Below, in pieces: positions 2,545 through 19,893 of a stretch of DNA of 29,554 bases. Numbering within the stretch: the first letter of the stretch is position 1; each line of letters begins with the position of its first letter. The stretch lies in IMG/VR virus record IMGVR_UViG_3300045988_082515; one strand, 5' to 3'. Below the pieces are notes generated by a model. That model saw nothing but the letters and a program-made list of their open reading frames with translations. It had not been told where the DNA came from and searched no databases. Source of the DNA: a virus. Position numbers and translations under genes: made by a program.

Positions 2545-2545
2545 A

Positions 2546-5500
2546 ATGAGAAAGAATATAAAACTATTTATTGCAAATAAAGAGGTTGACTGTAGTGAGG
2601 GAATTAGTCTTCCTATAACTTATACAGTTGAGGATTTCCAAAACCCCACTATAGTCAAGAACTCGTTTAGTAAGACGATTTCTATACCTGGTACCAAAAA
2701 TAATAATAAGATATTTGGAGAAATCTATAAATTAGATAGATTACAACATATTGAAGACGGTCAGTTTAGCGGTATTAATTTCAATCCTTCAAAACGAGTT
2801 GATTTTGGAATCTATTATAATGGAGATTTAATAGAATCTGGTTATATGCAATTAAATACCATACAAATTAAACAGAAGGTCATTACATATAACATTACTT
2901 TATATGGAGGCTTAGGAGATTTCTTCTATGGGCTTAAATATAAAGAAGATGGATCATTAAGAACTCTTGCTGATTTACAATACTTTATTACAGATGAGGA
3001 AGGTAATGTTTTACCTGCTGATACTGAAATGGATTTTTATATTAATAAAGATTTTGTAAATAAATCATTTAATAATTATTGGAATAGCGACTTTACTACA
3101 TTAGATAGCTTTGTTGGATTTATTCCTGCATATAATGGTTTATATGAGAATTTTGACAATGAAACTTGTTTAATAAATACAGCAGGAGACACTCTATTTC
3201 CCAAATCTGCAAGCGATGGAGGAACAACATATACTCCATATAATGGTTATGCTTTAGCACAATTAAATAGAGCTTATACAGAATGGGAAATAAGAGACTT
3301 ACGCAGTTATATGCAAAGACCAGTGTTAAAACTTTCTAAGCTTATAGAAACTATTTGTAGAAAAGAGAATTCTGGATATGATGTAATATTTGATGATTAC
3401 TTCTTTAATTATGCAAATCCTTATTGGAGCAAATCATTTGTAGCTCTTCCCTTGCTTGGAAGTAGTGAAGATGAAGAATCAGATTCTATTAAAGAGAACG
3501 CAAAGCTTATTAAATATGGAGCAGATAACTGGTGGGTAGGATTAAAACCTGGAGGAACAACAACTTCATATAATTGAGGATATACTTCTGTTGATGGCAG
3601 CGAGGTAATAGTTCCTGGAGAAGGAAATATTATTGATTTATCTGCAACACCTGCTAATACTTTAGTAAATATCTCAATGGATTTTCAGGTGTTCTTCAAT
3701 GCTAATGCTAGTTCCTCTGCAAATAATCTTTATTTATCCTATGTACGCAATGGAAAAATGGGAAATACTGAGTATCATAATGATCCGTATAGAACATCTT
3801 TAACTGTTCAGATACTTGTATATAATGCCGATGATGAATCTGTTCCATCTAAACCTATAGCATATTCTCCATTGTATAATTTTACAAATAAGATTAATAC
3901 TCAAGTTCAAGCTGGACCATCTACTTGGTTTAATTATTATCCTCTTACTGATGCTCCTGTTGAGGCTATTTATGGCCATTTTGTTAAAGATAGTGGGCAG
4001 AGGTACTATTTTAAAAGTGATACTGGAAGCAATACCTTTAGATTTGTGGTTAAAGATATGCCAAAAGTAAATAAGATAAGGGTGTCAATTCAATTTGCCA
4101 GAAGAACAGAAAGTCTCTATAATCAAGATGCTTTATGGATTTCAGATAATATGAACCCAAATAATGTTACTGCATCAAGAGTAGCAGGATGATCTGAATT
4201 TTTATATGATTCAGATCAATATACATTAATTGCAAGTTGGCCATCGGCTGTAACATCTGATGCTCTTATTACTAAGCAGAAGCTTTTAAAGACAGAATCT
4301 ACACCTGCGGATTATTTACTTAGCTATGCTAAAATGTTTGGATTATATTTTATTAAAGATATAGATTCCAAAACTATTAGAATATTTACCAGAAACAACT
4401 TCTTTAAAAATAAGATAACAGATTGGTCTAAACGAATTGATTATTCAAAAGATTTTTCAGTTAATCTATTATTATTTGATAAGAAGTGATATACTATGAA
4501 ACAAGAAGCTCCTGAGACGTATTATGCAAAGAAATATAATAAACAGTATGATATAACTTATGGGCAACAGAGATTAGATACAGGATATAATTTTAATAGT
4601 GATAATACAGATTTATACTCAGATAACTTATATGAAAATGTAATATCTGCAAGAGATGTAGATAAGTATTATAGAAACTATTTTAATAGTTCAAGTTCGC
4701 CAGTTCCCTGCTTCCTAAATGATAATATTACTTATCAATTATTCCATTCTACGTCTACTGAAAGAAAAACAAACGATCAGGATCTTTATGGAGTAAATTT
4801 CATTGATTCATCTAAGACTACAGAGTGGTGAGATGTTCCTGGTAATGATATATTTGCAAAGACTTGTTTCTATTCATTAGATAATGATGAGCAAAGTTTA
4901 GAAGAAATTAAATCGACATTACTATTTTATAATGGCAATGTAGAGATGAAAGATATTGATGGCAATCCTATTACGTATTGGATTACTGATGATATTACAG
5001 AAATGTCTGTATTAAATGATTCTGAACCTTGCTATTTATATACTACTAGAGAAACTAATGAAGCTGGTGCTAAGATTGCAATTAAAAGAACTTCTTTACC
5101 ACAATTCATAAGATATAATATATCAAGTAATTATGTAATATCTAGTTGGGATTTTGGATTACCAAGAGAAATTTATATAGATAAAATTGCATATCCAGAA
5201 CAAAGTGTTATTTATTCTCAATTCTGGAAAGAGTTCTATACTGATCAATTTGATGTTAATACTAAGAAAGTTACTTGTTTTGTAAAATTAAATGATTTAC
5301 AAGTAAACTTTGATATGTTAAGACAGTTTTACTATTTTGAAGATAGTTATTGGGTATTAAATAAAATAGATGCTTATGATGTTAATTCTGATGCAACTAC
5401 CAGATGTGAATTTATAAGAGTTCAAGACATTAATAATTATATAGGAGGAGTATCTACTTTAGGTAAATACATAGAAGTAAGTGACCCAGAAGTTACTGTA

Positions 5501-5995
5501 GGGTATGAAGCTGGAAGTAAAGTTGTAACTATAGAATCTAATGTTCCTTGGAAAGTTAGTTGGTATAATAATTTGAAGATTACAAATATTTCACCAATGG
5601 AAGGATTACCTGGAATTAGTACTATGACTATTGAATATAATGAAAATCCTAAATATATTGAAGATAACTTCTATTTAAGTTTAGTAGCTCAATCTGATAT
5701 TTATGAAAGATTAGGACAAGTACATTTTTATCAAACTCCTGATCCATCTAAATCAGTAAAGCTTTCTGGAAAAGTAATAGATGCAGATGGTAAAGTATTA
5801 GATGTACAACCTTATATCTATGTAGATAATGACAACTTTGTAGATAGTACATATTGTGATGCAACAACTGGAGAGTACTATTTATATGTTCAAAAAGGAG
5901 TTCCATTCCATTTTGAAGTACAATTATCAAGTGTTGTTAAATATGAGGAAGAACTTACTTTAAATGGAGATACTATTAAAAATATTACAATCTAA
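2546..5995 (+). CDS. Large tail-tip/host-recognition protein (1149 aa) with a BACON-like domain and a carboxypeptidase-regulatory-like C-terminal domain.
   Basis: Track ORFs 2546, 3677, 4496 and 4946 are all in frame 2 and are joined only by TGA (3575, 4190, 4487, 4829). The C-terminal region VTVGYEAGSKVVTIESNVPWKVSWYNNLKITNISPMEGLPGISTMTIEYNENP fits the BACON pattern. SGKVIDADGKVLDVQPYIYVD...TTGEYYLYV fits the CarboxypepD_reg pattern. Confidence 0.75.
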
Positions 5996-8685
5996 TGGCA
6001 CAAACAGAAATTAAAAAGGTTATTAGTATTGATACTAAGTCAAGTAATAAGTCAATAAACTCTTTAAAGAAGGATATTGATGCGTTATCTAGTTCTCTGA
6101 ATGATTTAGAGATTGGTACTAAGGAATATAATGAAACTCTTGCATTACTAGGTAAAAGACAATCAGAGTTCAATAAGATTAATGAGCAGATAGCAAGATC
6201 TTCGAGAACTACTGCTCAAAGATTTGAAAGTGTAGCTAAAATATCCACTGGGTTGGCCAGTGGATATAGTGCTGCAACTGCTGCTATTACTTTATTTGGG
6301 AAAGAATCAGAAGATTTAAATAAAGTAATGGTTAAGTTACAATCTACTATTGCTTTAGTTCAAGGTGTGGGAGGTATAAAAGATTTATTAGAAGAATTGC
6401 CTACTTTAGGTAATTGGTTTAAGAAATTAACTGATTTTATCTCTCCATTTAATACAGGGTTGAATAATGCTGCCAAAAATCTTAATCAGATTGATGCCGC
6501 TAAACTAAATAATATTGGCACTTCTGTTGGAAATGTTGGTACTGAATTGGGAAATATTTCTAAAGTTGTAAAAGATTTAGAGGGAGCCAATATTAATTTT
6601 AAAGTAGGTATGATTCAAGGAGTAATGGGCACTCCTGAGGAAATAAATTCTACTAATAAAAGTGTCTCTAATACCATTCCCATAGTTGGCAAATTTAATG
6701 ATACTGTTAAGAATTCTGCTAACAGTATGAAAGTCACCAGTGAAGAGTTAGAGAGATTAAAAAGGAATTCTCCAGCAATTGCAGCAGCATTGAATAAACA
6801 AGCAGATGCTGCGAAAGGGCTGGCAGATGGGACTTCACAAGCTGCTAAGGCAACTACAGCATTTTCAAAAGCAACTACAGCTCTTAAAACTATTGGTAAT
6901 GTAACAGTATGGATAGCTTTAGCTACAGCTATTGGATTAGCTATTAATAAGGTAATAGATTATGTATCTTCTATAAGAACAGCTGCTAAAGAGCAAGAAG
7001 AATTTAGAAAATCTATCACTGATGCTACTAATCAAATTTCTTCTAAGTCTATTGCTATATTTAAAGAGCTTCAGATAGCATATGAGAGGGTTGGAGATTC
7101 AGCAGATGCTAAACAAGAGTTCCTTAATAAATATGCAGATAAGATTAAAGAGACTGGCTTAAATATTAACACTGTAGCTCAAGCAGAGGATGCATTTATT
7201 AATAATACTGGAAATTATGTAGCTGCTTTAACAGCAAGAGCTAAAGCTCAGGCTATAGAGGAGCAAGCAATTAAAATCTACGAAGAGTATTTAAATAAAC
7301 GTTCTGAGCTTGAACATAAGATAGAAGATACTAATTTTGGAGAGGCATCTGCTTGGCAGGCTTTTAAAGCCACCGCAATGTTTTGGAAGGACTATCAAGG
7401 TCAGATATACGAATATACTAAGCAAAACAAAGAAAACACTTATAATGAGCTTTCAGACTTAAACAGAGAAATAGAAGAAAGACTTAGAAAGATGTTTGAA
7501 GATGTGGCTGAGCTTAATAAGAAATACGGAGGATTTTTTGATATAGAAGTCATTAAAAATAACACTACACAGGCTAAAGAAGAAATAAACGAGTTTGATG
7601 TATGGTTACAGAATAGACTAAATGCCAAAAATCCCGTAGACGAACTTGAAGATGAATATATTAGACTATTAGCATTAGCTATTAAGTATAATAGGGGAAT
7701 TGAAGAGGTAGAAGCTTGGCATCAAGAAGAGCTGAAGAAAATTAGAGATAAGGCTAGAGAAGATGAAGAAAATGCAAGAAAAAGTGCTGCAGATAAAGCT
7801 TGGAATGATTTCCAGGCTGAGTTAAAAAGAATCAGAGATTTATCCTCAACAAGTAATCTTAGAGAGCCAGTAGAACAGACATTCCAAACTACTTATACTC
7901 AAGGAGCATCTAAGGCATTCGGTTTGGCGGGAGACTATAATGGAACAGGTTATAAGTTTACTTACCAAAGCAGAGATGATTTAAATAATCAATATAAGGC
8001 GCAAACTGAGTATAATAATGAACTGTTAAGACTGACTAGAGAGCGTATTTTACAAGAGAATGAATTGTTAAATGAGCAACTTTCTAATGAGCAATTATCT
8101 GCAGATAGAAGGCTTGAAATAGAGCGAATTCTTGATGAGAATAAGAGAGCTTTGTCTGATGCTGAAATTAAAAACGAACAAGCTAATACTCAGGCTTATC
8201 AACACTTACAACAAGCAAGACAACAGGCTTTACAAGGTACTTTATCAGTAGCATCTAGTGTTGCAGGAAGTATGGCAACTATATGAGGAGAGGAAAGTAA
8301 AGTAGGTAAAGGATTTGCAACAGCTCAAGCTTTAATTGATACATATAGTGCAGCAAATAGCGCATACTCTGCTATGGCAGGAATTCCTATTGTAGGTCCT
8401 GCTTTAGGTATTGCTGCGGCTGCAGCTGCAGTAGTTGCAGGTATTGCAAATGTTAAAAAGATTTGAGAAGTAGATGAATCAGGTGCAAGTGGAGTGAGTG
8501 GAGCATCTGCAGCAGTGGCAGCACCAGCTGCTTTAAATACAGCTCCTGTTGAATATACTCGCAACCTATTAGGAGATAAAGAAACTGACCTTTTAAACGA
8601 ACCTGTTAAGTGTTATGTTGTTGAATCTGACATTACTTCAGCTCAAACTAAGGTAGCAGTTACTGAATCTAATGCTTCATTCTAG
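5995..8685 (+). CDS. Tail tape measure protein (896 aa).
   Basis: Track ORFs 5995-8286 and 8494-8685 share frame 1 and are joined through TGA at 8284 and 8464. The protein has long coiled-coil-like Ala/Gln/Glu-rich stretches. The C-terminal segment AQALIDTYSAANSAYSAMAGIPIVGPALGIAAAAAAVVAGIANVKKIW is typical of tape-measure proteins. Ends at TAG 8683-8685. Confidence 0.75.
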
Positions 8686-8694
8686 AAATGTTTA

Positions 8695-8746
8695 ATGTAA
8701 CTTTTTTATTCTTATTAACTACAAAATATGAGTAAAAAGGTTACAT
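8695..8746 (+). repeat. Conserved palindromic intergenic element, copy B.
   Basis: Arms ATGTAACTTTTTT (8695-8707) and AAAAAGGTTACAT (8734-8746). The 26-nt loop attcttattaactacaaaatatgagt is close to the loop of copy C. Confidence 0.7.
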
Positions 8747-8797
8747 TAGATATTCTAAAAATATTACAAATTTATAAAGTGCTATATATTAATAAAA

Positions 8798-9391
8798 ATG
8801 GAAATTACTTATAATGATCTTCCATTATTTCAGGCAGTGATTACTGATGATTGTGATGGAATAGAATATGTTGCTTTAACAAGTAAACCAGCTACACAAG
8901 TTAACTGGGTTGCTTTTAGTAATTCTCAGAAGTTCTCGATGGATGAAGATAAGCATTTAGTAACATCTTGCTTAATGTTAAGTGATACCCCAATTTTCAG
9001 ACGAGATGAGAAACTCGGAGAATACTACATACAGTATGATAAGGAAACTCTTCGTAAAATGGCAGAGAAGATGCTGTATGATAAAAGAACTACAGATGTG
9101 AATATTGAACATTTAGAAGATTCTGATTTAAATGGAATTACTCTACAAGAAATCTATGTAAAGGATATTAATAGAGGAATATCTCCAGTTGAATTCCAGG
9201 ATGTTCCTGATGGTTCTTTATTTGCCACTTATAAAGTAGATAATCAAGTTATTTGGGATGCAATTAAAGCTGGTAAGTTTAAAGGGTTCTCAATTGAAGG
9301 TTTATTTACTTTAGAGAGAAAGTCTGATGAATATGACGAAATAAAAGAGATCCTTAATATGATTAAGAAGATAAAAAGAGTTAAACATTAA
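8798..9391 (+). CDS. Prohead protease, XkdF-like.
   Basis: Intact 197-aa ORF. The region ...DKRTTDVNIEHLEDSDLNGITLQEIYVKD... and its position upstream of scaffold and capsid resemble XkdF-type phage proteases. No TGA. Confidence 0.55.
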   Translation: MEITYNDLPLFQAVITDDCDGIEYVALTSKPATQVNWVAFSNSQKFSMDEDKHLVTSCLMLSDTPIFRRDEKLGEYYIQYDKETLRKMAEKMLYDKRTTDVNIEHLEDSDLNGITLQEIYVKDINRGISPVEFQDVPDGSLFATYKVDNQVIWDAIKAGKFKGFSIEGLFTLERKSDEYDEIKEILNMIKKIKRVKH

Positions 9392-9401
9392 AAAGAGGTT
9401 A

Positions 9402-10004
9402 ATGTATAGTGGATGTATATACTTAGCAACCAATCAAACTAATGGTGCAAAATATGTTGGGCAGACTAATGATTTTAGTCGCAGACAAAAAGAACATAAG
9501 TACAGAACTAAGAATGATAAATTTCATAATGCAATTCAGTATTATGGTTTTGATTCCTTTAAATGGGATATTCTGCAAGTATTTTGCTGTTCAACAGCTG
9601 AATTACTAAGAACAAAACTGGATGAAGCAGAAATGAGATATATTAAATTATTTGATACTTATTCAAATGGTTATAATCTTACATTAGGTGGAGGAGGCAA
9701 TAAAGGACAGATTCATACAATCGAATCTAGAAATAAAATGTCTGCAAAACAGAGAGGAAGGATTATAAGCGATGAAACAAAAGATAAGCTTAGATTAGTA
9801 CGTTTAGGTTCTGTACAGAGTAAAGAATCCAGGCAAAAAGTAAGTAAACGTATAATTCAAACAGATTTGAATGATGTTTATATAAAAACTTGGGATTCTT
9901 CGATGGATGCTGAACGAGAGGATAAATTTGATCATAGTGCTATTATAAGATGTTGCAAAGGTAAACAAAACTATCATAAAAATTTTAAATTTAAGTATGA
10001 GTAA
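9402..10004 (+). CDS. GIY-YIG homing endonuclease with NUMOD3-like repeats (HEG 1).
   Basis: N-terminus GCIYLATNQTNGAKYVGQTNDFSRRQKEHK...NGYNLTLGGGG carries the GIY-YIG, R and NGYN motifs. It also has repeated xSxExRxKxS NUMOD3-like units. It is inserted between the protease and scaffold genes and is one of the few genes with an AGAGG-like RBS. Confidence 0.85.
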   Translation: MYSGCIYLATNQTNGAKYVGQTNDFSRRQKEHKYRTKNDKFHNAIQYYGFDSFKWDILQVFCCSTAELLRTKLDEAEMRYIKLFDTYSNGYNLTLGGGGNKGQIHTIESRNKMSAKQRGRIISDETKDKLRLVRLGSVQSKESRQKVSKRIIQTDLNDVYIKTWDSSMDAEREDKFDHSAIIRCCKGKQNYHKNFKFKYE

Positions 10005-10599
10005 ATTCACTAAAATTAAATTGGAGTTAGCGAGAATGCTGTCTAATTTTACGGATCTAAAGACATCAAGTGGTGTACTTACTTGGGATTCAGATGAAGA
10101 CTTACGCGCTGGTATGGATGTGTATGTTCAGGATGAGAACGGAGAATACAAACCTGCTGAGGATGGTGAGTATGTAACTGAGGATGGAAAGACAATTGTT
10201 GTTAAAGACGGTAAAGTAGAGTCTGTAACTGATCCTAAAGCTGAGGTTGATCCAGAAGAAGCAGCTAAAGCAGAAGTTGATGCTGCTTGTGGAAAACGCA
10301 AGGTAGAAACTGCTGAAGAGCCAGTTGATCCTGAAGTAGCTACTGATGGTGACAAAGAAACTGTAACTGATGCAATTGATGCAATTCATCGCGAAATTAA
10401 TGAGCTTTATGACATTGTTGATAAGCTTGTTAAGAAAGTAGCTGAATTAGAGGGTAAATCTGAAGCTACAGAAAAGACGGTTGAAAAGATGAGCAAAATG
10501 AGTGCTGCATTTTCAGCTGAGGAACAGATAGAAGGCAAAGCTTCAATAATGACTGGTAATCCTGTTATTGATAAAAAGCTTAAAAACTTTATTGGTTAA
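9997..10599 (+). CDS. Scaffolding protein (putative).
   Basis: Acidic 200-aa protein predicted to be helical, immediately upstream of the major capsid gene. Its start overlaps the HEG stop (ATGAGTAA). Confidence 0.55.
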   Translation: MSKFTKIKLELARMLSNFTDLKTSSGVLTWDSDEDLRAGMDVYVQDENGEYKPAEDGEYVTEDGKTIVVKDGKVESVTDPKAEVDPEEAAKAEVDAACGKRKVETAEEPVDPEVATDGDKETVTDAIDAIHREINELYDIVDKLVKKVAELEGKSEATEKTVEKMSKMSAAFSAEEQIEGKASIMTGNPVIDKKLKNFIG

Positions 10600-10621
10600 T
10601 TATTAAATTATTTATAAAATT

Positions 10622-11527
10622 ATGGCAAATAGTCCTGTAATGACTAGTCTTACTGCTTATGTAGAGCAGAGACGTCTTCCATTGATAAAAGAGGCTGTAT
10701 TAAAGGCTAAGAGTGCTAGTTTATTTAACTTACAGACTGATATTAAAACTTCAGCTGCTCTTAACTTACTTTCAACTGATGTTGAATTTGGAGATGGTCT
10801 GACTTGTGGATGGGATGAGGCTGGAACGCAGACTCTTTCACAACGAGTTCTTACGACTGGAAATATCAAGATTAATATGGCTTATTGCGACAAAGCTATG
10901 CTTAAATATTGGACTCAGTATCAGGTTCGCGTTGCTGCTGGTCAGAAAACGCTTCCTTTCGAAGAGGACTTTATTAGTGGTGTAGTTGAGAATGTTAAAG
11001 CCGCTATTGAAACCGCTATCTGGCAAGGTGATACTAGTTCTAGTACGAACAACCTTAGCTATTTCGATGGTCTGTTAAAGATCTTAAAAAATGATGCTGG
11101 TACTGTTGATGTAACGATTACTGGAGCATCTGCTTATGATGACATTATGGCTGTTTATAACGCTATTCCTGAGAAGGTTCTGGATGGTGCTTCTATCTTA
11201 GTTGGCAGTGATACTTTCCGTAAATTTATCCAGGAGTTAGTTGCTAAGAACTACTACCATTATAGTGGTGAGAATCTTAACGGTGAGATTATGCTTCCTG
11301 GTTCGCAGGTTAAAGTAATCGCTGTTAATGGTCTTAATGGAACTGATAAGATTGTTGCTGGTCAGTTAGATAAGAACTTCTTCTATGGTTGCGATATGAT
11401 GAACGATGAAGAGAAGTTTGAATTGTGGTATTCACAAGATTTCCGCGAATTTAGATTAGCTATTGAATTTAACGCTGGCGTACAGGTTGCATTCCCTGAT
11501 GAGGTAGTTCTTGGTGCCAAAGCCTAA
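10622..11527 (+). CDS. Major capsid protein, HK97-fold.
   Basis: 301 aa. The pattern ...KTLPFEEDFISGVVENVKAAIETAIWQGDTSS...YFDGLLK... matches HK97-family capsid proteins, and the position after protease and scaffold fits. Four Trp, all TGG. Confidence 0.8.
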   Translation: MANSPVMTSLTAYVEQRRLPLIKEAVLKAKSASLFNLQTDIKTSAALNLLSTDVEFGDGLTCGWDEAGTQTLSQRVLTTGNIKINMAYCDKAMLKYWTQYQVRVAAGQKTLPFEEDFISGVVENVKAAIETAIWQGDTSSSTNNLSYFDGLLKILKNDAGTVDVTITGASAYDDIMAVYNAIPEKVLDGASILVGSDTFRKFIQELVAKNYYHYSGENLNGEIMLPGSQVKVIAVNGLNGTDKIVAGQLDKNFFYGCDMMNDEEKFELWYSQDFREFRLAIEFNAGVQVAFPDEVVLGAKA

Positions 11528-11565
11528 TTTCAATAGAGTTTAACTTTAAATAAGATTGAAATTAT

Positions 11566-12090
11566 ATGGCTTGTTTAATAACTATCGCTGGTATTACCCT
11601 GGATTGCGAATCTTCGCTTGGTGGTATCAAACAGGTATGGATTACTCAGTACGATAACGTTAAGAGTGTAACTGTAGATGATGAGACTAATCAAATCTCA
11701 GCTATTACTCTTGAAGAAGATGCTAAATGGTATAATTACCAATTCCGCAAAGGTACTGGTTCTCTAACCTCAACATTGAACGTTGACGAAACTGCAGGAA
11801 CCAACTATGTAAGTAATGAGCTTGCTCTTGTATTTACAAAGATGGAGACTAAGAAAAGAATCGAGATTGCTGCTCTTTCTATTGGACAACTTGTAGTTGT
11901 TGTAGAAGATTCTAATGGCAAATATTGGTTCTTAGGAAAAGATGAATATGTAAGCGCTTCCGCTGGTACGGGTGTTACTGGTACTGCAAAAGGTGATCAG
12001 AATGCTTATACGCTGACTTTAGCTACTGACTCTGAATCATATCCTTATGAGTTGAGTGCAGAAGCTATCCAAAGTGTTGTAGGTGCTTAA
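11566..12090 (+). CDS. Major tail tube protein (putative).
   Basis: 174 aa, directly after the capsid gene. The N-terminal GGIKQVWITQYDNV and C-terminal ...DSNGKYWFLGKDEYVSASAGTGVTGTAKGDQNAYTLTL pattern resembles siphovirus tail tube proteins. A strong terminator follows. Confidence 0.5.
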   Translation: MACLITIAGITLDCESSLGGIKQVWITQYDNVKSVTVDDETNQISAITLEEDAKWYNYQFRKGTGSLTSTLNVDETAGTNYVSNELALVFTKMETKKRIEIAALSIGQLVVVVEDSNGKYWFLGKDEYVSASAGTGVTGTAKGDQNAYTLTLATDSESYPYELSAEAIQSVVGA

Positions 12091-12098
12091 CAACAGAA

Positions 12099-12135
12099 GA
12101 GGGGCGAGTATTAATTTACTTGCCCCTTATTTTGT
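12099..12135 (+). terminator. Rho-independent terminator.
   Basis: GC-rich stem aggggcgagt (12100-12109) pairs with acttgcccct (12118-12127), with one G-T wobble. The loop is attaattt and tattttgttt follows. Confidence 0.75.
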
Positions 12136-12180
12136 TTATATACCACATAATGAATAATTTATATTTTATAGAAAAATAAT

Positions 12181-14793
12181 ATGGCAAACGAAACTGAAAA
12201 GACAATTCTTCCTTATCTTAATGTCCTTGAAGTCGAAACAATAGATAAGTCAAATGTGACTAAAGTTATTGTTATTGACAAGGATGATGAAGTTAAGGTT
12301 ATGGATGGTTCTCAGTTAGCTACTAATAGCTATTTTGATCTTCAGGATAAACCTGAGATCAATGGTATTGAGTTAAATGGTAATATGACTTCGGAAGAGT
12401 TGGGATTAGCGTCATCTGAAGATATTGTTACTATTAATTCTGAGTTAGAGCAAATAAAGAGTACTATTCCAAGTGCTGAAAATATTGATAATCAGATAAC
12501 TGAACGATTAGCTGATTATCCAACTAAAGAAGAGGTTACAACTGAAATTTCAGATGCAGTTGCCAATAAAGCCGATAAATCTGAGATACCAACAAAAACT
12601 TCACAATTAACTAATGATAGTGGGTTTATTAGTAGCTTAGATGGATATGCTACTGAAAATTGAGTTGAAGATAATTATCTTACAAAAGAAGCTACTGAAA
12701 GTGCATTAAATTCTAAACAGAATAAATTAAACCAAGGTGACGGTATAGTAATTGAAGAGAATACTATTTCTGCAGATTATAATACTATTCGTAACAAACC
12801 ATCTTTAAATGGAACTGAATTATCTGGAGCAGCTTCAATCGTACCTGCCATTAATATTCAATCAGTCCCATCTAAAGTTACTTTAGCTCCTGTATTTGGT
12901 AATCAAACTGGAGAAGCAGTTGAACTTCCAATATATAATACAGAGACTAATCAAGCTGGTATTGTTAATGGTCCTCTATATGCACAATTAGCAGATAAAT
13001 ATACCAAAGCTGAAATTGATGCTTTAAATACAGCTATTAATAAAGAGATAGCTTCAAAACAGGAAACGCTTACAGCAGGAAAGAATATATCTATTATAGA
13101 TAATGTAATCTCTGCTTTTGAGAATCATTTCTTACTTAATTTAGATGAGAATGATCCTGTAAGACAGAAACATATCTATGACTTTATTAGAACTAATCTG
13201 GACTTCTATTTATTCTGCCAGATTACATATAAAGGTGATATTATAGTTATTCCTGTTGCAACTATTGAGCATCCCGAAACTATTGATTTATATGGCTATT
13301 ATTTCCAAGATAATGGTGTATTAGTAGTTATTAATGCAATCTTAGTAAATAATGGTAATATGACTGTTAAAGTTACTGAGGTTGATCTTACTAATAAAGG
13401 ATATACTAAAGATGAAATAGATGAGAAACTTGCAGCTAAGCAAGGTGTATTTACTCCACAAGCTCCATTAGCTTTTAATGGAGATAAGACTCAGTTATCT
13501 GTAGATTTATCTGGATACCAACCAGTTGGTGATTATGCAACTAACGATTCAGTTAATGAGGAAATTGAGACTCTAAGATCTTCTTTACAAAGTAAGATTG
13601 ATGCAAAACAAGATAAAGGAGATTATGCTTTAAAGAGTGATATTCCAACTAAAGTTAGTGAGCTTACTAATGATTCTAACTTTGTAACTGAAGCAGAGGT
13701 TTCTGGAGATTTAGCAGGTAAAGCAGATAAGACTTATGTTGATGAGCAGCTTGCTACTAAACAGCCTGTAGGAGATTATGCAACAAAAACAGAACTTGCA
13801 GGTAAAGCAGATTCTTCTGTAGTAGAATCTTTATCTACTCAAGTAGCAACTAATACTTCAGATATATCAATTATTAAAACAAAACAAGAAGAAGATGGAG
13901 ATAAGATTGATTCTCTTGATAAAGAGATGGCTACTAAGCAAGATTTACTTGTAAGTGGAACTAATATCAAAACAATCAATAGTCAGTCTTTACTTGGAGA
14001 AGGTAATATAGAAATTGAAAGTGGTTCTAATATTCCATTTCTATTTATAAATTCCATTACTCATCTTTCTGGAGATTTCGCTGCTGTTAAGAATGCTATA
14101 GCTAATAAAACACCATTTGAGCTTTATTATGTAAATATTCTAGGTTATGGTGATATAGCAGCTCCAGAAGTATGTTTTGTTTCAGGAGAAAATATTCAAG
14201 CTACTTTCCATTTTGAAAGTACTACAGCTAATCATACTGTAGTTCAAACTACTATTACTCCAACTGGAGTATCAGCAGATACTAGTTATCATAGTTATCA
14301 GGAGCAATTAGTCTCTGGGACTAATATAAAGACTATTAATGGTGAAAGTATTTTAGGAGAAGGTAATCTTGAAATATCTGGTAGTGGAGGGACTACTGAC
14401 TATACTCAGTTAACAAATAAACCTCAAATCAATTCTGTTGAACTTAGTGGTAATAAGAGTCTTGAGGATTTAGGTATACCAACTAAGACATCTGAGCTTA
14501 CTAATGATAGTGGATTTTTAACTTCTATTCCTGATGAATATGTTACGGAAACTGAATTAAATGCAGGATTAGGAAATAAACAAGACACTTTAGTTAGTGG
14601 AACAAATATCAAGACAGTTAATGGAGAAAGCTTATTAGGTAGTGGAAATATAGATATTGAGAATGTTTCTAATCCAGTTACTTATGGAAGTGGAACTCAA
14701 TCACAAGTTCATACTATTCTTGTGGTAACTCAGTCTGAATATGATGCTATTTCAAGTAAAGATCCAAATACTCAATATTTAATTGTAGAGTAA
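12181..14793 (+). CDS. Long tail fibre (870 aa) with repeated fibre motifs.
   Basis: Track ORFs 12181-12663 and 13360-14793 share frame 1, with a single TGA at 12661. Region 12664-13359 is open in the same frame. There are three LVSGTNIKT(I/V)NG(E/Q)S(L/I)LG(E/S)GN(I/L) repeats, three (I)PTK(T/V)S(E/Q)LTNDS(G/N)F motifs and NKPxINGxELxG motifs. Confidence 0.8.
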
Positions 14794-14794
14794 T

Positions 14795-15721
14795 ATGAAT
14801 ATTCGAGATAATTTAAAAGCTTTTTATGTAGGTAACAGACAAGGTACTGCCATTTATGTGGGCAGTACCAAAGTCTGGCCTATTGATCCTTGTAATCCTA
14901 TAACCTTTATAGACCCAGTATTTGGAAGTCAAGTTAAAAGACTTTTATTAGATGATAAACCTGTAACGGATTGTAATATAGACAGTGTAAAAAGCTGATA
15001 TTATCCAAATCCTTCAAATGACTCTGCATTTACTGGTTCTGCTGTAGTTACTAACGAGGATTACAAAAAATTCAATGTTCCTGCATCTAATGATGATAAT
15101 GTAGTATTTATGAGACTTTTTCAAAGTTGTGCTGATTTAACTACATTTGATACTGGAATGGTTGAAGGTGGAGAAGATAAATTAGGACTATTAAACAATA
15201 TGGGCGGTTTTTATTGTACCTTACAAGGATGCACTTCATTAACTACCATTATAGGAGATTTTGATGGTTCTAAGATATATAATTATAACTGGATGTTTGG
15301 AAATTGTAGATCTTTAATTACTGCTCCAAATATAACCTTCCCTCATAATAATTATTCAGCAGGTCGTACAGTTAATGTAAGCAGATTATTTGATGGTTGT
15401 ACTTCATTAACTACTATGCCTTTATATGATGCATATTCTTGGGAATATTTAAATCTTACGTTTAATAATTTATCTAATTTAGAAAATGTTGGAGGGTTTA
15501 AAGATATAGGAAAATGCTTTACTAATAACTCCGTTGCTGGATTAAATTTTGAAGATAGCCCAAAGTTAACTAATCAATCAGTACAGAATATAATTAATAA
15601 TTTAGCTACTCCAAGAGAATCAATTGCTGGAGTTCTAAAATTTGCAGAGAGTGTTTATAATTCATTAACAGAGGAACAAAAATCACAAATCACCAGTAAA
15701 GGCTGGTCAGTAACATACTAA
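14795..15721 (+). CDS. BspA-like leucine-rich-repeat (LRR_5/DUF285-like) protein, putative receptor-binding component, paralog 1.
   Basis: Track ORFs 14795 and 15110 share frame 2, with TGA at 14996. Repeated units: FQSCADLTTFD, LQGCTSLTTII, MFGNCRSLITAP, LFDGCTSLTTMP. The C-terminus resembles that of the 16622 gene. Confidence 0.7.
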
Positions 15722-15722
15722 T

Positions 15723-15944
15723 ATGAAAGTTGAAATTAAAGAAAAGTATCAAGTAGTTAAGCCTGAAGATAGTATGCTTCTGACTAACTATAAAGACGAA
15801 ATGGATATTAAAGGGTATAACTCATTTAAAGAGTGTATTTGTCCATTAGATTGCGATTTAACTCATCTAAGAGAAATATCTCTGGAACAAGACAGGGTTT
15901 ATAAAGAACAAGCTGAGAAGGCTATTGAAGAATCTCTTAAATAA
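15723..15944 (+). CDS. Hypothetical small protein.
   Basis: Intact 73-aa ORF packed tightly between the two fibre cassettes. Confidence 0.5.
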   Translation: MKVEIKEKYQVVKPEDSMLLTNYKDEMDIKGYNSFKECICPLDCDLTHLREISLEQDRVYKEQAEKAIEESLK

Positions 15945-15951
15945 TAAAACT

Positions 15952-16620
15952 ATGATTATATTAAAGAATACTAAGAATACTCAGACCTTCTATGTTAGTA
16001 AGAAATGTGGTATTGAGACAGCTCAGCTTCCAGTTGGTTCTTATACAAAGATTGAAGCAGATGCGAGATTTCAACCTAAAGGTAATTACATTTCAGAAGA
16101 TAAGGCTGTTGAAATAATTGATGAGCAAATTAATTCTCAGTTGGATGTTATACTTGAACCTAAGTTAGAGCCAATTAAGAATGATATTACTGAATTAGAA
16201 ACATCTAAGATGGAAGTATTTCAAGTAAACTCTCCTATGTCATTTAATAGAGAGGGTGAAGATTTACATCTATCTATTGATCTTTCTAACTATGCTCTCA
16301 AGTCAGATATTCCAAGTACTGAGGATTTTGCTACTAAAGAAGAGCTTGCATCTGTTGAAAGTGAAGTTGGAAACAATTCTTCTAAGATTACAGCTATTGA
16401 AAGCAAGCAAGAAGAGGATGAACTAAAGATTGATGCATTAGATAAGGAAGTTGGGACATTAGATGCAAATAAAGCAGACAAATCGGAACTATCTAATTAT
16501 GTAACATTAGAAGTATATAATGCTAAGGTTTCAGAATTAGAAGCTGCTATTCAAGCTTTACAGGCACAAATCGGAACTATCTCAACTACTCTTGATACAA
16601 TTAATGGTGAGGTAATCTAA
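15952..16620 (+). CDS. Short tail fibre / fibre-like coiled-coil protein.
   Basis: ATG 15952 follows the upstream stop. The track start at 15925 would overlap it. The segment SDIPSTEDFATKEELASVESEVGNNSSKITAIESKQEEDELKIDALDKEV is paralogous to part of the long fibre (TKTELAGKADSSVVESLSTQVATNTSDISIIKTKQEEDGDKIDSLDKEM). Confidence 0.65.
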   Translation: MIILKNTKNTQTFYVSKKCGIETAQLPVGSYTKIEADARFQPKGNYISEDKAVEIIDEQINSQLDVILEPKLEPIKNDITELETSKMEVFQVNSPMSFNREGEDLHLSIDLSNYALKSDIPSTEDFATKEELASVESEVGNNSSKITAIESKQEEDELKIDALDKEVGTLDANKADKSELSNYVTLEVYNAKVSELEAAIQALQAQIGTISTTLDTINGEVI

Positions 16621-16621
16621 T

Positions 16622-17632
16622 ATGGCAAATACTATAAGTGATAAATTAGAGTATCTTGAAGGCACTAAGAGTGCTATTAAAGATGCTATTGTAGCTAAAG
16701 GTGTAGCTGTTGAGGATACTGCAACCTTTAGAAGCTATGCAGATAAGATTGGAGAAATATCTGGAGGTGGAGGAGGTAAGGTTAATTTGAATGATTATGG
16801 ACTTACATTAGCATATTCAAAACCTACAAATGAACAATTAAATAACTTAGAATTTAGTTTTTCTACAGTTAATAGCACTAAAAATTTCTTTAAGGGAATG
16901 GTCTCTACTGGAGCTTATATAAACCTATTTCCTATTTGGAATACTTCTATGGCCTATGATTGTAATGAAATGTTAGCTGGAGCATCTGTAAATCAGATTG
17001 ATTTCCCACAAGAAATTATAATATCTGGTGGAAATAATATGTTCAATAATTTTAGTGCTTCAGCTATGACTTTAGATACATTAGTAGTATCTTCTCCTAA
17101 TGGCTTTGATGATATGTCTTATATGTTCCAATATGCTGATGTTGTTTGTAATCATCTTATTGTACGAAGTATAGACAATGCGTATGTAATATTTAATTCC
17201 ACTTTTGCAAGTTTAGGAAATACTATTACAGCATTACCCAATGTAAAGATTGAAGCAGTTAATTCTCGCATTAGAATGGAATGTAATGGTATATATTCGC
17301 AGCTTCCATCTAATATTACGGCACTTCCATTATGAGATTTAACTGGAGTTACAGAAGGCCAGAATTTTACTAACTGATTTGATTATAGTTGAAGTAGTAT
17401 AAATAGTACTGTAACTGATATGGAAGGAATTGAAAATCTAAGAGTTGATCTAGATTTGAGATTATTAGACGCATTAAATAGTAATGCTATAGATAATATC
17501 CTTAATAAAGCAGCTGATCTAAGTTCAGAAGCAACTCAAACTATTACATTTGCTTCCTCTGTATTTAATGCCATTACAGAAGAACAAAAAGCTTTAGCTG
17601 CATCTAAGAACTGGACATTAGCTTCTGCATAG
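16622..17632 (+). CDS. BspA/DUF285-like repeat protein, putative receptor-binding component, paralog 2 (336 aa).
   Basis: Track ORFs 16622 and 17420 share frame 2, with three TGA (17333, 17375, 17390) giving PLWDLTGVTEGQNFTNWFDYSWS. The C-terminus ...ITFASSVFNAITEEQKALAASKNWTLASA parallels ...LKFAESVYNSLTEEQKSQITSKGWSVTY of the 14795 gene. Confidence 0.7.
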
Positions 17633-17638
17633 TAAATT

Positions 17639-17666
17639 TAGGGAGATTTTATTCTCCCTATTTTTA
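17639..17666 (+). terminator. Rho-independent terminator.
   Basis: Stem tagggaga (17639-17646) pairs with tctcccta (17653-17660). The loop is ttttat and TTTTT follows. Confidence 0.7.
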
Positions 17667-17739
17667 TGTTAATACATATACATAGTCTTTTATATTTTAA
17701 GAAAAAGATATGTAAATTAACGTAAAACCATTGCAAAAT

Positions 17740-18132
17740 ATGAACTATACTTTGTTAATGCAGAATACGATTACAAAGGAAGTTTATTTATTTGACCTTG
17801 AAAATCAGAATTATGCTGAAAATATCTACTATAAGTTTGATATTACATTATCTGATGATATGCCTGATGGTGAATATCAGTATATTCTGTTTAGTAATCC
17901 AAATAAACTTGAAGTAATTGTAGATGTAAATAATCCTATGCAGTCAGAGCTATATGGTAATCCAGTTATTCTGGTAACTTATGAAAATACTCTTACTACA
18001 GGAACGCAGATATTAGTTGCTGGTAAACCTATACCTGTATTGAGTTCAGGACTAATAAGAGTTGGAGATTATCAGAATAATAAATACCAATACGATAAAC
18101 AAAATAAATATACGGCTTATGAGCGAAAATAA
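17740..18132 (+). CDS. Hypothetical protein, first gene of the portal operon.
   Basis: ATG 17740. The track start at 17731 is TTG. 130 aa, no TGA and no recognisable motif. Confidence 0.5.
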   Translation: MNYTLLMQNTITKEVYLFDLENQNYAENIYYKFDITLSDDMPDGEYQYILFSNPNKLEVIVDVNNPMQSELYGNPVILVTYENTLTTGTQILVAGKPIPVLSSGLIRVGDYQNNKYQYDKQNKYTAYERK

Positions 18133-19201: not shown

Positions 19202-19202
19202 T

Positions 19203-19892
19203 ATGGAACAAATGGATTTTAGAAATGTACTTCTAATTAGTGAAGATTACATCAAATCTGAATCTAACTTAGATAATAATGTTTCTGGCAAGTATCTTCA
19301 ATCAGCAATTAAGTTGGCTCAAGATGTAGAGCTTCAGTCAACTATTGGTACTAAGCTATTGGAAGCATTACAAAAGAAATGTATTAATTGGATTGATCCT
19401 CATACCCCAGTTCATCCAATAGAGCCTCCTGAGCCACTTCCAAGTGATTCTATTGATGATTCTGATAACTACAGATATAAAGAGCTATTAGACTATTATG
19501 TTCAGCCTTATTTACTTTATCAAGTACTTAGTGAGATAGTAATTCCTATATCTTATAAGCTTGGTAATTTTGGAGTTATGAGAACTGATGATGAGAAAGA
19601 TATTGCTGCTGAAGCAAGTCAAGTAAATCAAATTAAGAAGTATTATAGAGATAAGGCGGATTTCTTTAAGACTCGTTTACAGGACTTTATAATTACATAT
19701 TATAATGAATTCCCTGAGCTTTATACATATAAGCCATTAAAGGATATGTTTCCCAATCTTTATTCTAGCTCATCTTGCAATATTTGGCTTGGTGGAGCAA
19801 GAGGTAAAGGTTGGAGATATAATTCTTGTGAAGGTCCTCTGCAAAGAGCTTATGATTTCCCTTCAAGTGATAACAATAAAAAGAGTAAGTAA
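19203..19892 (+). CDS. Head-tail connector/adaptor-like protein (putative).
   Basis: ATG 19203 comes right after the portal stop. The N-terminus MEQMDFRNVLLISEDYIKSESNLDNNVSGKYLQSAIKLAQDVELQSTIG resembles head-completion/adaptor proteins. The functional call rests mainly on position. Confidence 0.4.
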   Translation: MEQMDFRNVLLISEDYIKSESNLDNNVSGKYLQSAIKLAQDVELQSTIGTKLLEALQKKCINWIDPHTPVHPIEPPEPLPSDSIDDSDNYRYKELLDYYVQPYLLYQVLSEIVIPISYKLGNFGVMRTDDEKDIAAEASQVNQIKKYYRDKADFFKTRLQDFIITYYNEFPELYTYKPLKDMFPNLYSSSSCNIWLGGARGKGWRYNSCEGPLQRAYDFPSSDNNKKSK

Positions 19893-19893
19893 G

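Follow-up and report, generated by a model that had tools for sequence, protein, structure and literature searches.

The window analysed here, a 29,554-nucleotide stretch of DNA, is the complete circular genome (∼29.4 kb) of a tailed phage of the human gut in which in-frame TGA is read as tryptophan, and across its family the share of tryptophan codons written as TGA differs from gene to gene. This heterogeneity is restricted to a subset comprising the genes for the major capsid protein (MCP), a tail-tube-fold protein, a scaffold-like protein and a helicase, together with a holin-like ORF and the small ORF 22650–22784; outside the constrained genes TGA and TGG turn over in a neutral-like manner. 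There is somewhat better than even reason to think that the infected cell can decode TGA only at a cost, the decoding being inefficient or delayed, and that selection purges TGA from high-yield or early genes.

Code assignment and decoding machinery

When relatives were aligned to the window, their in-frame TGA codons lay opposite Trp 468 times, opposite Phe or Tyr 73 times and opposite Gly 5 times, and distant standard-code relatives present TGG at columns where the window has TGA. Code 25, the TGA-to-Gly reassignment of Absconditabacteria and Gracilibacteria phages, is ruled out, Gly standing opposite only 5 of ∼600 aligned TGA codons. Among the terminators of the 34 complete genes of the window 30 are TAA, 4 are TAG and none is TGA; the sole candidate for a terminating TGA is the one preceding ORF 22787–22882.

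The genome is without tRNA genes: ARAGORN found none, either in the window or among 35 relatives, and no Rfam tRNA match appeared even at E ≤ 5. Release factor and aminoacyl-tRNA synthetase domains are absent from all ORFs, and neither a suppressor tRNA nor a Trp-tRNA synthetase is encoded. A complete genome with no decoding mechanism suits a native TGA-reading host at least as well as the proposal of costly decoding. TGA supplies 28 per cent of the Trp codons of the window, and the A-ending share of its Lys, Glu and Gln codons is ∼72 per cent. At the base following TGA (+4) T is depleted, but non-significantly, so that competition with a release factor is not demonstrated by this measure.

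Placement of TGA within the genome

The 35 gene calls of the window hold 33 TGA and 83 TGG, with TGA in 20 of the 35 genes. An earlier note on this DNA had held that the head block, portal block and helicase avoid TGA entirely, and its counts are exact (0 TGA and 12 TGG in genes 8798–12090, 0 and 8 in genes 17731–20319, 0 and 4 in the helicase, and 13 TGA in genes 449–8685). The non-random placement that it read into them finds no statistical support in this genome (permutation p = 0.22–0.36). With an exact census, permutation puts the per-gene G statistic at p = 0.22; 29 Trp codons sit in TGA-free genes where 26.7 are expected (p = 0.36), the longest run of TGG is 13 where 11.5 is expected (p = 0.30), and a runs test gives p = 0.27, so that the single genome is consistent with random placement. 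The contrast of 0/24 with 33/92 (Fisher p = 2e-4) is a product of picking TGA-free genes post hoc, and the TGA-free state of the portal, connector, protease and head-block endonuclease genes in this genome would be sampling chance.

A 'chaperone extension' (11925–12179, + strand), which had been counted as a coding region with four TGA codons, is spurious. It is an out-of-frame reading of the 3′ end of gene 11566–12090 that crosses the intrinsic terminator ending the head operon (12099–12128, +; 12-bp stem with 6 GC pairs and a T tail); its translation abounds in Trp, Cys and Arg, and relatives carry TAA or TAG stops or indels within it.

Constraint across the family

The family comparison covers ∼60 related loci, which are not phylogenetically independent, and its group-level tests are in part post hoc. 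Gene-level heterogeneity emerges when Trp columns are permuted among the genes (p = 0.018). TGA and TGG interchange freely in the tail genes, terminase and portal, and in genes other than the constrained ones 67 columns have undergone 100 TGG/TGA changes, 1.34 times the rate of A/G changes at Lys, Glu and Gln codons. The 10 columns of the MCP, tail-tube-fold and helicase genes have 1 change between them where 8.7–11.6 are expected, and 10 columns resampled from other genes sum to at most one change with P = 5e-5. Third positions of Lys, Glu and Gln codons in the MCP, tail-tube-fold and scaffold genes flip ∼0.8–0.9 times per column, yet TGG-to-TGA flips in these genes are absent. Across 29 genes a stronger codon bias goes with a smaller TGA share (rho −0.38 and −0.49), and how deeply a Trp site is conserved is uncorrelated with that share (rho about 0): column 648 of tail gene g2546, a deeply conserved Trp site, is 93 per cent TGA. 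The effect thus acts at the level of the gene and not of the site.

The freely varying genes include the tail module (449–8685, +), recognised by PHROG matches and made up of a Neck1/tail-completion-like gene (449–937, +), a tail gene (940–2544, +), g2546 (2546–5995, +) and a tape-measure-like gene (5995–8685, +). It contains 32 TGG and 13 in-frame TGA, the latter at positions 500, 644, 1048, 1339, 1393, 1444, 1579, 3575, 4190, 4487, 4829, 8284 and 8464. Relatives use TGA for 29–43 per cent of the Trp codons of their tail genes, with 1.4–1.8 TGG/TGA flips per column; the family counts of TGA are 228/531 in g2546 and 76/187 in the tape-measure-like gene. The large terminase gene (27695–28978, +), ∼45 per cent TGA in the family, has one TGA in the window (at 28289) and at least one in every relative. 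The endolysin gene has strong codon bias yet 42 per cent TGA, which counts against the reading of costly decoding. A holin-like membrane ORF of 52 aa (21543–21701, +), called in a gap of the gene list upstream of the peptidoglycan peptidase Peptidase_M15_3 (21701–22153, E = 6.5e-14), has 2 TGG in the window and 0 TGA against 52 TGG across the family.

Head and portal genes

Within the head block the prohead protease gene (S78-like; 8798–9391, +; 0 TGA and 2 TGG in the window) is not constrained, its relatives having 9/73 TGA with two flips in two columns. The GIY-YIG homing endonuclease (HEG) gene inserted between protease and scaffold (9402–10004, +), also with 0 TGA and 2 TGG in the window, is TGA-rich in relatives (40–57 per cent). 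The scaffold-like gene (9997–10599, +; 0/1 in the window) has 0/25 TGA in the family, all from one Trp/Tyr column; phrog_24921 covers both protease and scaffold. The MCP gene (10622–11527, +; 0 TGA and 4 TGG in the window) has 0/152 TGA in the main clade and the strongest bias of the genome toward G/C-ending codons (NNG 0.57 and NNC 0.35, versus ∼0.2 and ∼0.1 in tail genes). Its TGA-free state recurs in two separate, deep recoded lineages: TGA/TGG counts in L032 are 4/2 in the tape-measure gene, 4/2 in the HEG and 0/4 in the MCP gene, and those in L128 are 10/6 in a tail gene, 5/0 in the terminase and 0/3 in the MCP gene. The last gene of the block (11566–12090, +; 0/3 in the window, 1/114 TGA in the family) encodes a protein with a tail-tube/terminator-like fold, a weak structural match (AF2 pLDDT 70; best Foldseek matches to tail tube and terminator proteins, E 1e-3 to 1e-1).

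The portal gene (18119–19201, +; 0/4 in the window) carries TGA at 12/116 Trp codons in relatives; TGG and TGA have replaced one another there nine times independently, and one locus, L136, has 4 TGA to 1 TGG. The two connector-like ORFs (19203–19892 and 19894–20319, +; 0/4 in the window) reach 7–17 per cent TGA in relatives, with repeated flips. TGA is not constrained in the portal or the connectors. The suggestion that the most highly expressed genes are under selection to avoid TGA holds in part: the lack of flips, the L032 and L128 lineages and a G/C-ending codon bias that is strongest in these genes bear it out for the MCP, tail-tube-fold and scaffold genes, and the portal block does not bear it out. 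Relatives carry TGA in their portal genes and lack it in their capsid genes.

Early operons and host

The leftward early operon opens with an SF2 helicase gene (22947–24665, −; 0/4 in the window), whose product is predicted at AF2 pLDDT 81 and matches DEAD-box, RecQ and UvsW structures in Foldseek at probability 1.0. The family has 1/135 TGA in this gene, codon bias is at background, and alleles that differ by 27–30 per cent in protein are both without TGA. Three small ORFs downstream (22787–22882, 22650–22784 and 22508–22648, −) have no sense TGA across the family (0/29 for ORF 22650–22784). The TGA at 22885–22883 (−) directly precedes an ATG that is kept in 28 relatives, has AAGGAG upstream and opens a 31-aa ORF, and this helicase-adjacent TGA is unlikely to be a sense codon.

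A Bacteroidota-type promoter, TTTG-N20-TAnnTTTG, lies upstream of the helicase (24824–24855, −), where most relatives retain it between −175 and −190 with a spacer that varies, and a second copy (25433–25464, +) serves the rightward operon (25511–27031, +). In the latter, gene 25511–25750 is TGA-free (0/20 in the family), and the nuclease-like, split sigma-like and membrane ORFs downstream each contain TGA in every genome examined. Staged translation, another explanation that had been offered, thus gains from the family-wide TGA-free helicase operon and loses from the obligatory TGA of the rightward operon. The early-region exceptions raised against it divide likewise, the nuclease-like and split sigma-like ORFs carrying TGA as described and the helicase-adjacent ORF being doubtful. 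Because a host-type promoter drives an operon with obligatory TGA, a simple switch from early standard to late recoded translation is not the whole story.

The host is probably a member of the Bacteroidota and putatively uses the standard code. A Shine–Dalgarno core precedes only 4 of 38 genes, −33/−7 promoters of Bacteroidota type stand before both early operons and are kept in relatives, sigma-70-type sites show no enrichment, and distant relatives sit in Bacteroidota MAG bins; the promoters, the scarce Shine–Dalgarno sequences and the peptidoglycan hydrolase together point to a standard-code host. A search for a prophage junction found none, the 148-kb phage-bearing contig being a tandem concatemer and the 193-kb scaffold probably likewise.

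Explanations for the exclusion of TGA

We infer a cost of decoding, a division of genes by yield and timing, and the phylum of the host. The most probable source of the cost would be release factor 2 of a standard-code host from the Bacteroidota, competing for the TGA codon. TGA may then be purged from self-assembling products needed in hundreds of copies (MCP, scaffold and tail-tube-fold protein) and from the helicase operon, which would be needed at the very start of infection. In low-copy tail, fibre, terminase, lysin, regulator and HEG genes, drift from TGG to TGA would be almost neutral under A+T pressure.

An alternative that we consider unlikely is a native code-4 host with tRNA-Trp(UCA) and no release factor 2, whose code the phage would mirror and in which ordinary translational selection would favor TGG, as it does other G-ending codons, in the most expressed genes. 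It would account for a genome and relatives that all lack tRNA, release factor and synthetase genes, for TGA spread over 20 of 35 genes, some of them under host-type promoters, for its presence in each genome's terminase gene, and for a TGA share that follows general codon bias. It fits poorly with a helicase operon that avoids TGA (1/135 and 0/29) at background codon bias, and with a TGA share of 28 per cent where other A-ending codons reach ∼72 per cent and phages of Mycoplasma reach 77–95 per cent. The Bacteroidota-type promoters, scarce Shine–Dalgarno sequences and peptidoglycan hydrolase speak against Mollicutes, close syntenic relatives use the standard code, and reassignment of UGA to Trp is limited, according to a 2026 preprint, to Bacillota, Pseudomonadota, Verrucomicrobiota and now Actinomycetota.

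It is conceivable, and we hold it only tentatively, that an undescribed route from UGA to Trp, independent of tRNA and either encoded or induced by the phage, operates in a standard-code Bacteroidota cell, for example by inactivating release factor 2 or altering the host tRNA-Trp. The gene for such a factor would be among the few early genes that are TGA-free family-wide (25511–25750, the helicase, 22787–22882, 22650–22784 and 22508–22648). In that case the obligatory TGAs that come next, those of the nuclease-like, sigma-like and terminase genes, would serve as a translational gate and dosage control, and lattice-forming proteins would stay TGA-free.

Chance is a weaker candidate, and we doubt it strongly: there would be no gene-specific constraint, Trp-poor genes would often be TGA-free, and shared ancestry would repeat their state. 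Every unbiased test in the window is non-significant, the constrained genes have only 3–5 Trp columns each, TGA likewise stays under 5 per cent in 19 of the 74 Trp columns of 'permissive' genes, and per-gene Poisson values (MCP P = 0.008, helicase P = 0.025) lose significance after Bonferroni correction over 24 genes. Against it stand the column permutation and the resampling, the polymorphic Lys, Glu and Gln sites of the same genes, which show that ancestry has not frozen third positions, and the TGA-free capsid genes of L032 and L128 beside TGA-rich neighbours.

Historical inertia, by which the code changed recently from an ancestral state with all Trp as TGG and slow genes have yet to gain TGA, appears less probable still. 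Standard-code relatives at 66 per cent MCP identity, the genome-wide scarcity of TGA and its low share in conserved genes would suit it, but turnover within the clade already runs at 1.34 times the other synonymous A/G rate, deeply conserved tail Trp sites such as column 648 are freely TGA with no conservation correlation, and helicase alleles 27–30 per cent apart in protein are both TGA-free. Recent import of the head module, and perhaps the helicase, from a standard-code phage, which for the head module the earlier note had also suggested, is scarcely credible: the head block does have a GC of 0.38 versus 0.31 for the genome and a distinct codon usage, but L031, the nearest standard-code relative, is syntenic from packaging through tail, head and portal with proportional divergence (34–66 per cent identity) and has the same capsid elevation in codon bias and GC (MCP 0.367 in a 28 per cent GC genome), no standard-code capsid gene among the IMG/VR matches is closer than 66 per cent, and in ∼40 relatives the divergence of the head genes keeps step with that of the remaining genome.

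Relation to known recoded phages

Highly expressed structural genes of phages are under translational selection on codon usage. The capsid gene resembles this, being the most G/C-ending, with a TGA share that drops with bias and the same capsid bias in L031. Exclusion of TGA is, unlike ordinary codon bias, all-or-none and extends to a helicase operon without codon bias, and ordinary codon bias alone is therefore insufficient.

Mycoplasma phages MAV1 and P1, whose native hosts use code 4, likewise read TGA as Trp, are A+T-rich and encode no tRNAs. At similar GC, TGA makes up 77 per cent (MAV1) and 95 per cent (P1) of their Trp codons, in almost every gene and matching other A-ending codons, whereas the window phage has 28 per cent, shuts TGA out of specific genes and encodes a peptidoglycan peptidase (Peptidase_M15_3), for which phages of wall-less Mollicutes hosts have no need.

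The crAss-like phages (Crassvirales), which recode TAG to Gln or TGA to Trp in late genes, share with the window phage a probable Bacteroidota host, low GC, recoding that toggles between close relatives, and incongruence of recoding with suppressor tRNAs. The window genome is small and unrelated, without a crAss-type RNA polymerase or large replication module. [quoted passage not shown]

Code-4 gut phages predicted to infect standard-code Firmicutes or Bacteroidetes include the Garnet, Amethyst, Topaz (small-genome) and Agate clades (Borges et al., bioRxiv 10.1101/2021.08.26.457843), here compared by description. Some ∼65 per cent of reported code-4 phages lack a suppressor tRNA, as does the window phage, and only ∼35 per cent have code-change machinery, which is thus no strict hallmark of the group. 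Like the phages of Borges et al., it is a gut phage whose in-frame TGA aligns with Trp, it has close standard-code relatives, so that the code shifts over short evolutionary distances, the genes richest in TGA include its HEGs and its tail or fibre genes, and one replication gene block is compatible with the standard code. Their model lays weight on the recoding of structural and lysis genes, whereas the genes free of TGA here are those for the capsid, scaffold, tail-tube-fold protein and holin-like product; further differences are the obligatory TGA of an operon with a host-type promoter and the lack of any code-change module in the complete 29.4-kb genome.

The window phage is thus best read as a variant of known stop-codon-recoded gut phages, which refines a known phenomenon and does not constitute a new one. 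The exclusion of TGA, in this phage and its relatives, from the genes for capsid, tail tube and early helicase suggests that its reading in these phages is costly or delayed.

Identity of TGA and the recoded family

Long open reading frames open up in the window only when TGA is a sense codon, and the stops of 34 of 34 complete genes are TAA (30) or TAG (4). In-frame TGA in ∼60 related IMG/VR loci faces a window tryptophan 468 times and phenylalanine or tyrosine 73 times. Given that single tryptophan columns often switch between TGA and TGG among relatives, and that the window's TGA columns are TGG in distant relatives, TGA is assigned to tryptophan (code 4); code 25, in which TGA is glycine, is rejected, as only five alignments pair the two.

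The family mixes recoded and standard-code phages. The main clade has ∼40 IMG/VR members with 88–98 per cent identity in the major capsid protein (MCP) and two groups of helicase alleles, about 70 and 99 per cent identical to the window. Two deeper lineages are also recoded, represented by L032 (57 per cent MCP identity; no further members were found in IMG/VR) and L128 (69 per cent). The related contig L031 (66 per cent MCP identity, 28 per cent GC) is standard-code, with 0 TGA against 32 TGG, and is syntenic with the window from the packaging genes through the tail, head and portal. In more distant loci (L036–L080, L129–L145) in-frame TGA is essentially absent: most homologous stretches have none, and a few of low identity have single codons. 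Recoding thus arose within a vertically inherited, syntenic family.

Genome and gene content

An exact 119-bp direct repeat at the window ends (1–119 and 29436–29554) marks a circularly closed contig of ∼29,435 bp, in which ORF 28978 runs over the junction to a stop at position 184. Its GC content is 30.7 per cent, and neither blastn nor tblastn matched it to a phage in an annotated phage collection. Near-identical genes occur on contigs whose record names place the source in human gut metagenomes. Profile searches identified a tail-completion-like and a tape-measure-like gene, an S78-like prohead protease, a scaffold-like protein, the MCP (10622–11527), the portal, the large terminase, an M15 peptidoglycan peptidase, one HNH nuclease, three GIY-YIG homing endonucleases and a sigma-70 region-4-like helix-turn-helix ORF (26466–26711). 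The ORF upstream of the latter (26174–26482) had no profile match; the two, each with a TGA, share 17 nt in different frames and could be the parts of a sigma-like factor that is split or frameshifted. For the helicase and the tube-like protein, PDB sequence searches, with profiles included, returned no match and the assignments come from fold searches: the minus-strand gene 22947–24665 (pLDDT 81) matches the DEAD-box, RecQ and UvsW folds of SF2 helicases with probability 1.0, and the model of 11566–12090 (pLDDT 70; E 1e-3 to 1e-1) weakly suggests a tail-tube or terminator-like fold.

Gene order across 449–12090 is unusual, in that a neck-like gene, two large tail genes and the tape-measure-like gene precede the protease, scaffold, MCP and tube-like gene, and the portal lies 6 kb downstream, past the fibre genes. 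The tape-measure assignment, which rests on weak coiled-coil-rich PHROG matches, may be wrong. The fibre-like gene 12181–14793 holds, within 13956–14657, three copies of a ∼60-nt repeat encoding SGTNIKT(I/V)NG(E/Q)S(L/I)LGEGN, and a related motif lies at 16585–16610, at the end of gene 15925–16620.

Distribution of TGA in the window

The earlier note reported that TGA is absent from the head block, the portal block and the helicase, and its counts are exact. The head block (8798–12090) has 0 TGA and 12 TGG, the portal block (17731–20319) 0 and 8, the helicase 0 and 4 and the tail genes (449–8685) 13 and 32; all 35 gene calls together hold 33 TGA and 83 TGG, to which three further small ORFs add 3 TGG and 0 TGA. 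Non-random placement within this single genome is not borne out, in that tests without a post hoc choice of genes show nothing unusual: P = 0.22 for a permuted per-gene G statistic, P = 0.36 for tryptophan codons inside TGA-free genes (29 against 26.7 expected), P = 0.30 for the longest TGG run (13 against 11.5) and P = 0.27 for a runs test. The contrast of 0/24 with 33/92 (Fisher P = 2e-4) is an artefact of choosing the genes after the data had been seen.

Two TGA-bearing features of the earlier note are also withdrawn. Its 'chaperone extension' (11925–12179) is the out-of-frame 3′ end of 11566–12090, spans a strong terminator (12099–12128) and carries TAA or TAG stops or indels in relatives. 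The TGA of its 'helicase-adjacent ORF' directly precedes an ATG, with AAGGAG upstream, that opens a 31-aa ORF kept in 28 relatives; the stretch 5′ of this TGA overlaps the end of the helicase and is not conserved. Within genes TGA has no 5′ or 3′ bias (mean positions 0.48 and 0.47, rho 0.07). The +4 base was examined as a signature of release-factor competition: in the window T is scarcer and G commoner after TGA than after TGG, and at the family level, over unique combinations of column, codon and context, the shortage of T is non-significant (chi-square P = 0.30).

Gene-level exclusion across the family

Across the family, seven genes are nearly free of TGA: the MCP (0 of 152 tryptophan codons), the tube-fold protein (1/114), the scaffold (0/25), the helicase (1/135), a holin-like ORF at 21543–21701 (0/52), ORF 22650–22784 (0/29) and gene 25511–25750 (0/20). 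Usage is low, with repeated flips between TGG and TGA, in the portal (12/116), the protease (9/73) and the connectors (7–17 per cent). It is moderate in genes 940–2544 (86/298) and 2546–5995 (228/531), the tape-measure-like gene (76/187), the M15 peptidase (42 per cent) and the terminase (45 per cent), and high in the homing endonucleases (40–80 per cent) and the fibre-like genes 12181–14793 and 16622–17632 (80–97 per cent). Between-gene variance exceeds that obtained when tryptophan columns, taken as the unit, are permuted among genes (P = 0.018).

Changes counted by parsimony on neighbour-joining gene trees give a similar picture. The MCP, tube and helicase show one change in 10 columns against 8.7–11.6 expected (Poisson 1.6e-3 to 1e-4; resampling 5e-5), a post hoc grouping whose members taken singly give P = 0.008 for the MCP and P = 0.025 for the helicase among 24 genes tested; the other genes show 100 changes in 67 columns, 1.34 times the A/G rate at Lys, Glu and Gln codons. 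The TGA-free capsid is repeated in the independent recoded lineages: L032 has 4 TGA and 2 TGG in both its tape-measure gene and an endonuclease and 0 and 4 in its MCP, and L128 has 10 and 6 in a tail gene, 5 and 0 in the terminase and 0 and 3 in the MCP.

The earlier note had allowed that relatives carrying TGA freely in capsid and portal genes would count against it. They do so in the portal, where nine independent flips have occurred and one relative (L136) has 4 TGA and 1 TGG, but not in the capsid gene. The portal block and the protease, with their TGA and repeated flips in relatives, therefore drop out of the claim, and what survives, with moderate statistical support, is that across the family the helicase operon and the genes for the capsid, scaffold and tube-like protein exclude TGA.

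Two smaller patterns were also seen. The nuclease-like gene 25750–26184 has exactly one TGA (codon 25; window 25822) and one TGG (codon 39) in 21 of 21 relatives, a fixed pair that contrasts with the free flips in tail genes. The holin-like ORF, probably a holin, lies between gene 20885–21541 and the M15 peptidase, encodes a 52-aa membrane protein and lacks TGA in 27 relatives.

Why certain genes are spared

The explanation of the exclusion favoured here as the likeliest, with modest confidence, is a cost or delay in TGA decoding, which would keep the codon out of the capsid, tube, scaffold and helicase operon. The main rival, a host that reads TGA natively, appears rather improbable. No tRNA was found in the window or in 35 relatives, even at permissive Rfam settings, nor any other cryptic RNA, and profile searches of the phage ORFs returned no release factor or synthetase domain, a lack that suits such a host at least as well as the favoured reading. 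In the Mycoplasma phages MAV1 and P1, whose hosts do read TGA natively, TGA makes up 77 and 95 per cent of tryptophan codons and occurs in almost every gene, whereas in the window it makes up 28 per cent, while Lys, Glu and Gln codons are ∼72 per cent A-ending; this low usage is consistent with a standard-code host.

There is also reason to place the host in the Bacteroidota. Both early intergenic regions share one 45–68-nt element containing TTTG-N20-TAnnTTTG, with one copy before the helicase, one before gene 25511 and a third, partial copy before the endonuclease 24873–25361. Sites of this −33/−7 type are reportedly the consensus of the Bacteroidota primary sigma factor. A generic TTTG-N17–23-TAnnTTTG occurs twice in the whole window against 1.8 expected, which is not above chance, and the argument therefore rests on site location, duplication and conservation: both motif blocks are kept upstream of the helicase in most relatives, with a variable spacer. 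Sites of the sigma-70 type show no enrichment (82, with 105.6 expected). Taken with these promoters, a Shine–Dalgarno core before only 4 of 38 genes, the phage-encoded M15 peptidase, the two short, distant matches (both in Bacteroidota MAG bins) that alone emerged from a prophage search of 185,579 species genomes, and a 2026 survey preprint that lists no Bacteroidota reading UGA as tryptophan, lead us to infer a standard-code Bacteroidota host.

Candidate host-flanked prophages were discarded. The 148,631-bp contig IMGVR_UViG_3300045988_175865 (L003, L108) is a tandem concatemer of about five copies with a period of 29,846 bp, and a 193,455-bp ENA scaffold (L113), which has only phage genes around the match, is probably another such concatemer, with a unit of ∼29.8 kb. 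The helicase homologues seen in a Hymenobacter genome and a 132-kb scaffold belong to other elements and give no pointer to the host. The latter scaffold (LEMO22-1..scaffold_71; L123) carries at 5900–21740 an integrase-flanked prophage beside host genes (glutamine synthetase, TerC), with a 46 per cent identical helicase homologue. The genes called in it are markedly broken up (81 aa for the terminase, 213 aa for the portal and 174 aa for the capsid), so that this prophage, too, may be stop-codon-recoded, in this case with a host that could be identified.

Selection for translational yield would account for part of the pattern. Across 29 genes the TGA share drops as the preference for G- or C-ending codons rises (rho −0.38, P = 0.044; rho −0.49, P = 0.007), which fits such selection, and bias is strongest in the MCP (NNG 0.57, NNC 0.35), followed by the tube and scaffold. 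Codon bias is nevertheless only part of the explanation, since the helicase excludes TGA at background bias (0.24 and 0.13) and the strongly biased M15 peptidase has 42 per cent TGA.

Avoidance at deeply conserved tryptophans is not supported: TGA share and site conservation are uncorrelated (rho ∼0) and ancient sites in tail genes are often >90 per cent TGA, so that exclusion acts per gene and not per residue. A mosaic head module, as the earlier note had suggested, is rejected given recoding inside a vertically inherited syntenic family whose tail and head genes diverged in proportion; the rise in capsid GC and codon bias is already present in standard-code L031 (MCP GC 0.367; NNG 0.30 against 0.14 in its tail gene) and also in L128.

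Operons and regulatory repeats

The leftward operon behind the host-type promoter comprises the helicase and ORFs 22787–22882, 22650–22784 and 22508–22648, and nowhere in the family do these small ORFs contain a sense TGA. This matches the idea of Borges et al. (bioRxiv 10.1101/2021.08.26.457843) that replication genes stay standard-code. In the rightward operon, behind the same promoter type, the first gene (25511–25750) is TGA-free, but in all genomes examined the nuclease-like gene, the membrane ORF and the sigma-like pair each hold at least one TGA, and so does the terminase. A simple scheme of early standard and late recoded genes therefore does not fit; TGA decoding would have either to be available early or to serve as a gate past the first gene.

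Several repeats accompany these operons. A 67-nt near-palindromic element, with arms TGTAACTTTTTTA and TAAAAAGGTTACA, occurs in three copies of 78–87 per cent identity: before the tail operon (320–386, inverted), before the head operon (8688–8754) and between the helicase start and the endonuclease 24873–25361 (24692–24758). Its orientation toward downstream genes is not conserved; binding of a regulator and hairpin formation are possible roles. A 34-nt A/T-rich element, TACnAATnTATAAAnnnnTATATnTTAAnAAAA, at 416–449, 8765–8798 and 27020–27053, abuts the ATG of genes 449, 8798 and 27054. It may serve as a phage-specific (late) promoter or as a leader, and the sigma-like ORFs could be what reads it. 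The host-type promoter element is doubled as a 68-nt inverted repeat (24807–24874 and 25414–25481) flanking the GIY-YIG endonuclease 24873–25361, which has its own partial copy at 25368–25412; the arrangement suggests that the endonuclease cassette entered a divergent promoter region and copied the promoter. Another GIY-YIG endonuclease (9402–10004) lies between the protease and scaffold, and phrog_24921 matches both of these flanking genes. Homing endonuclease sites differ in relatives, lying after the MCP, inside the tail module or beside the portal (L113–L117); in L113, L115 and L117 one lies between the MCP and tube genes.

Relation to known recoded phages

Stop-codon-recoded gut phages are a known class, of which this phage is a variant. 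Borges et al. described code-4 and code-15 gut phages of standard-code hosts, with close standard-code relatives, a suppressor tRNA in only 35 per cent of code-4 genomes and recoding concentrated in structural and lysis genes; in their gene-family tests endonuclease, tail and lysis-membrane genes prefer TGA. The present phage resembles these in its TGA-rich endonucleases and tail fibres, standard-code relatives and lack of a tRNA. It differs in that its capsid, scaffold, tube-like and holin-like genes exclude TGA (for the holin-like ORF, the opposite of the published enrichment in lysis membrane proteins), in that TGA is obligatory behind a host-type promoter and in having nothing like a code-change module. 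In the literature searched, whose coverage is incomplete, no report of capsid-specific avoidance of a recoded codon was found.

The pattern thus qualifies the published view of structural and lysis genes as favoured sites of recoding. In practical terms, the standard code suffices to annotate the capsid and helicase genes of such phages and to use them as markers, while the remaining genome needs code 4. A review treats decoding in tRNA-less recoded phages as an open question, and an abundant, small and complete genome, in a family with both recoded and standard-code members, offers a compact test case; its chief use is as a model for the translation of recoded phages that lack a suppressor tRNA. 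That the capsid, tube, scaffold and helicase operon refuse TGA indicates imperfect or delayed decoding, and the hunt for any code-switch factor is narrowed by how few early ORFs are TGA-free.
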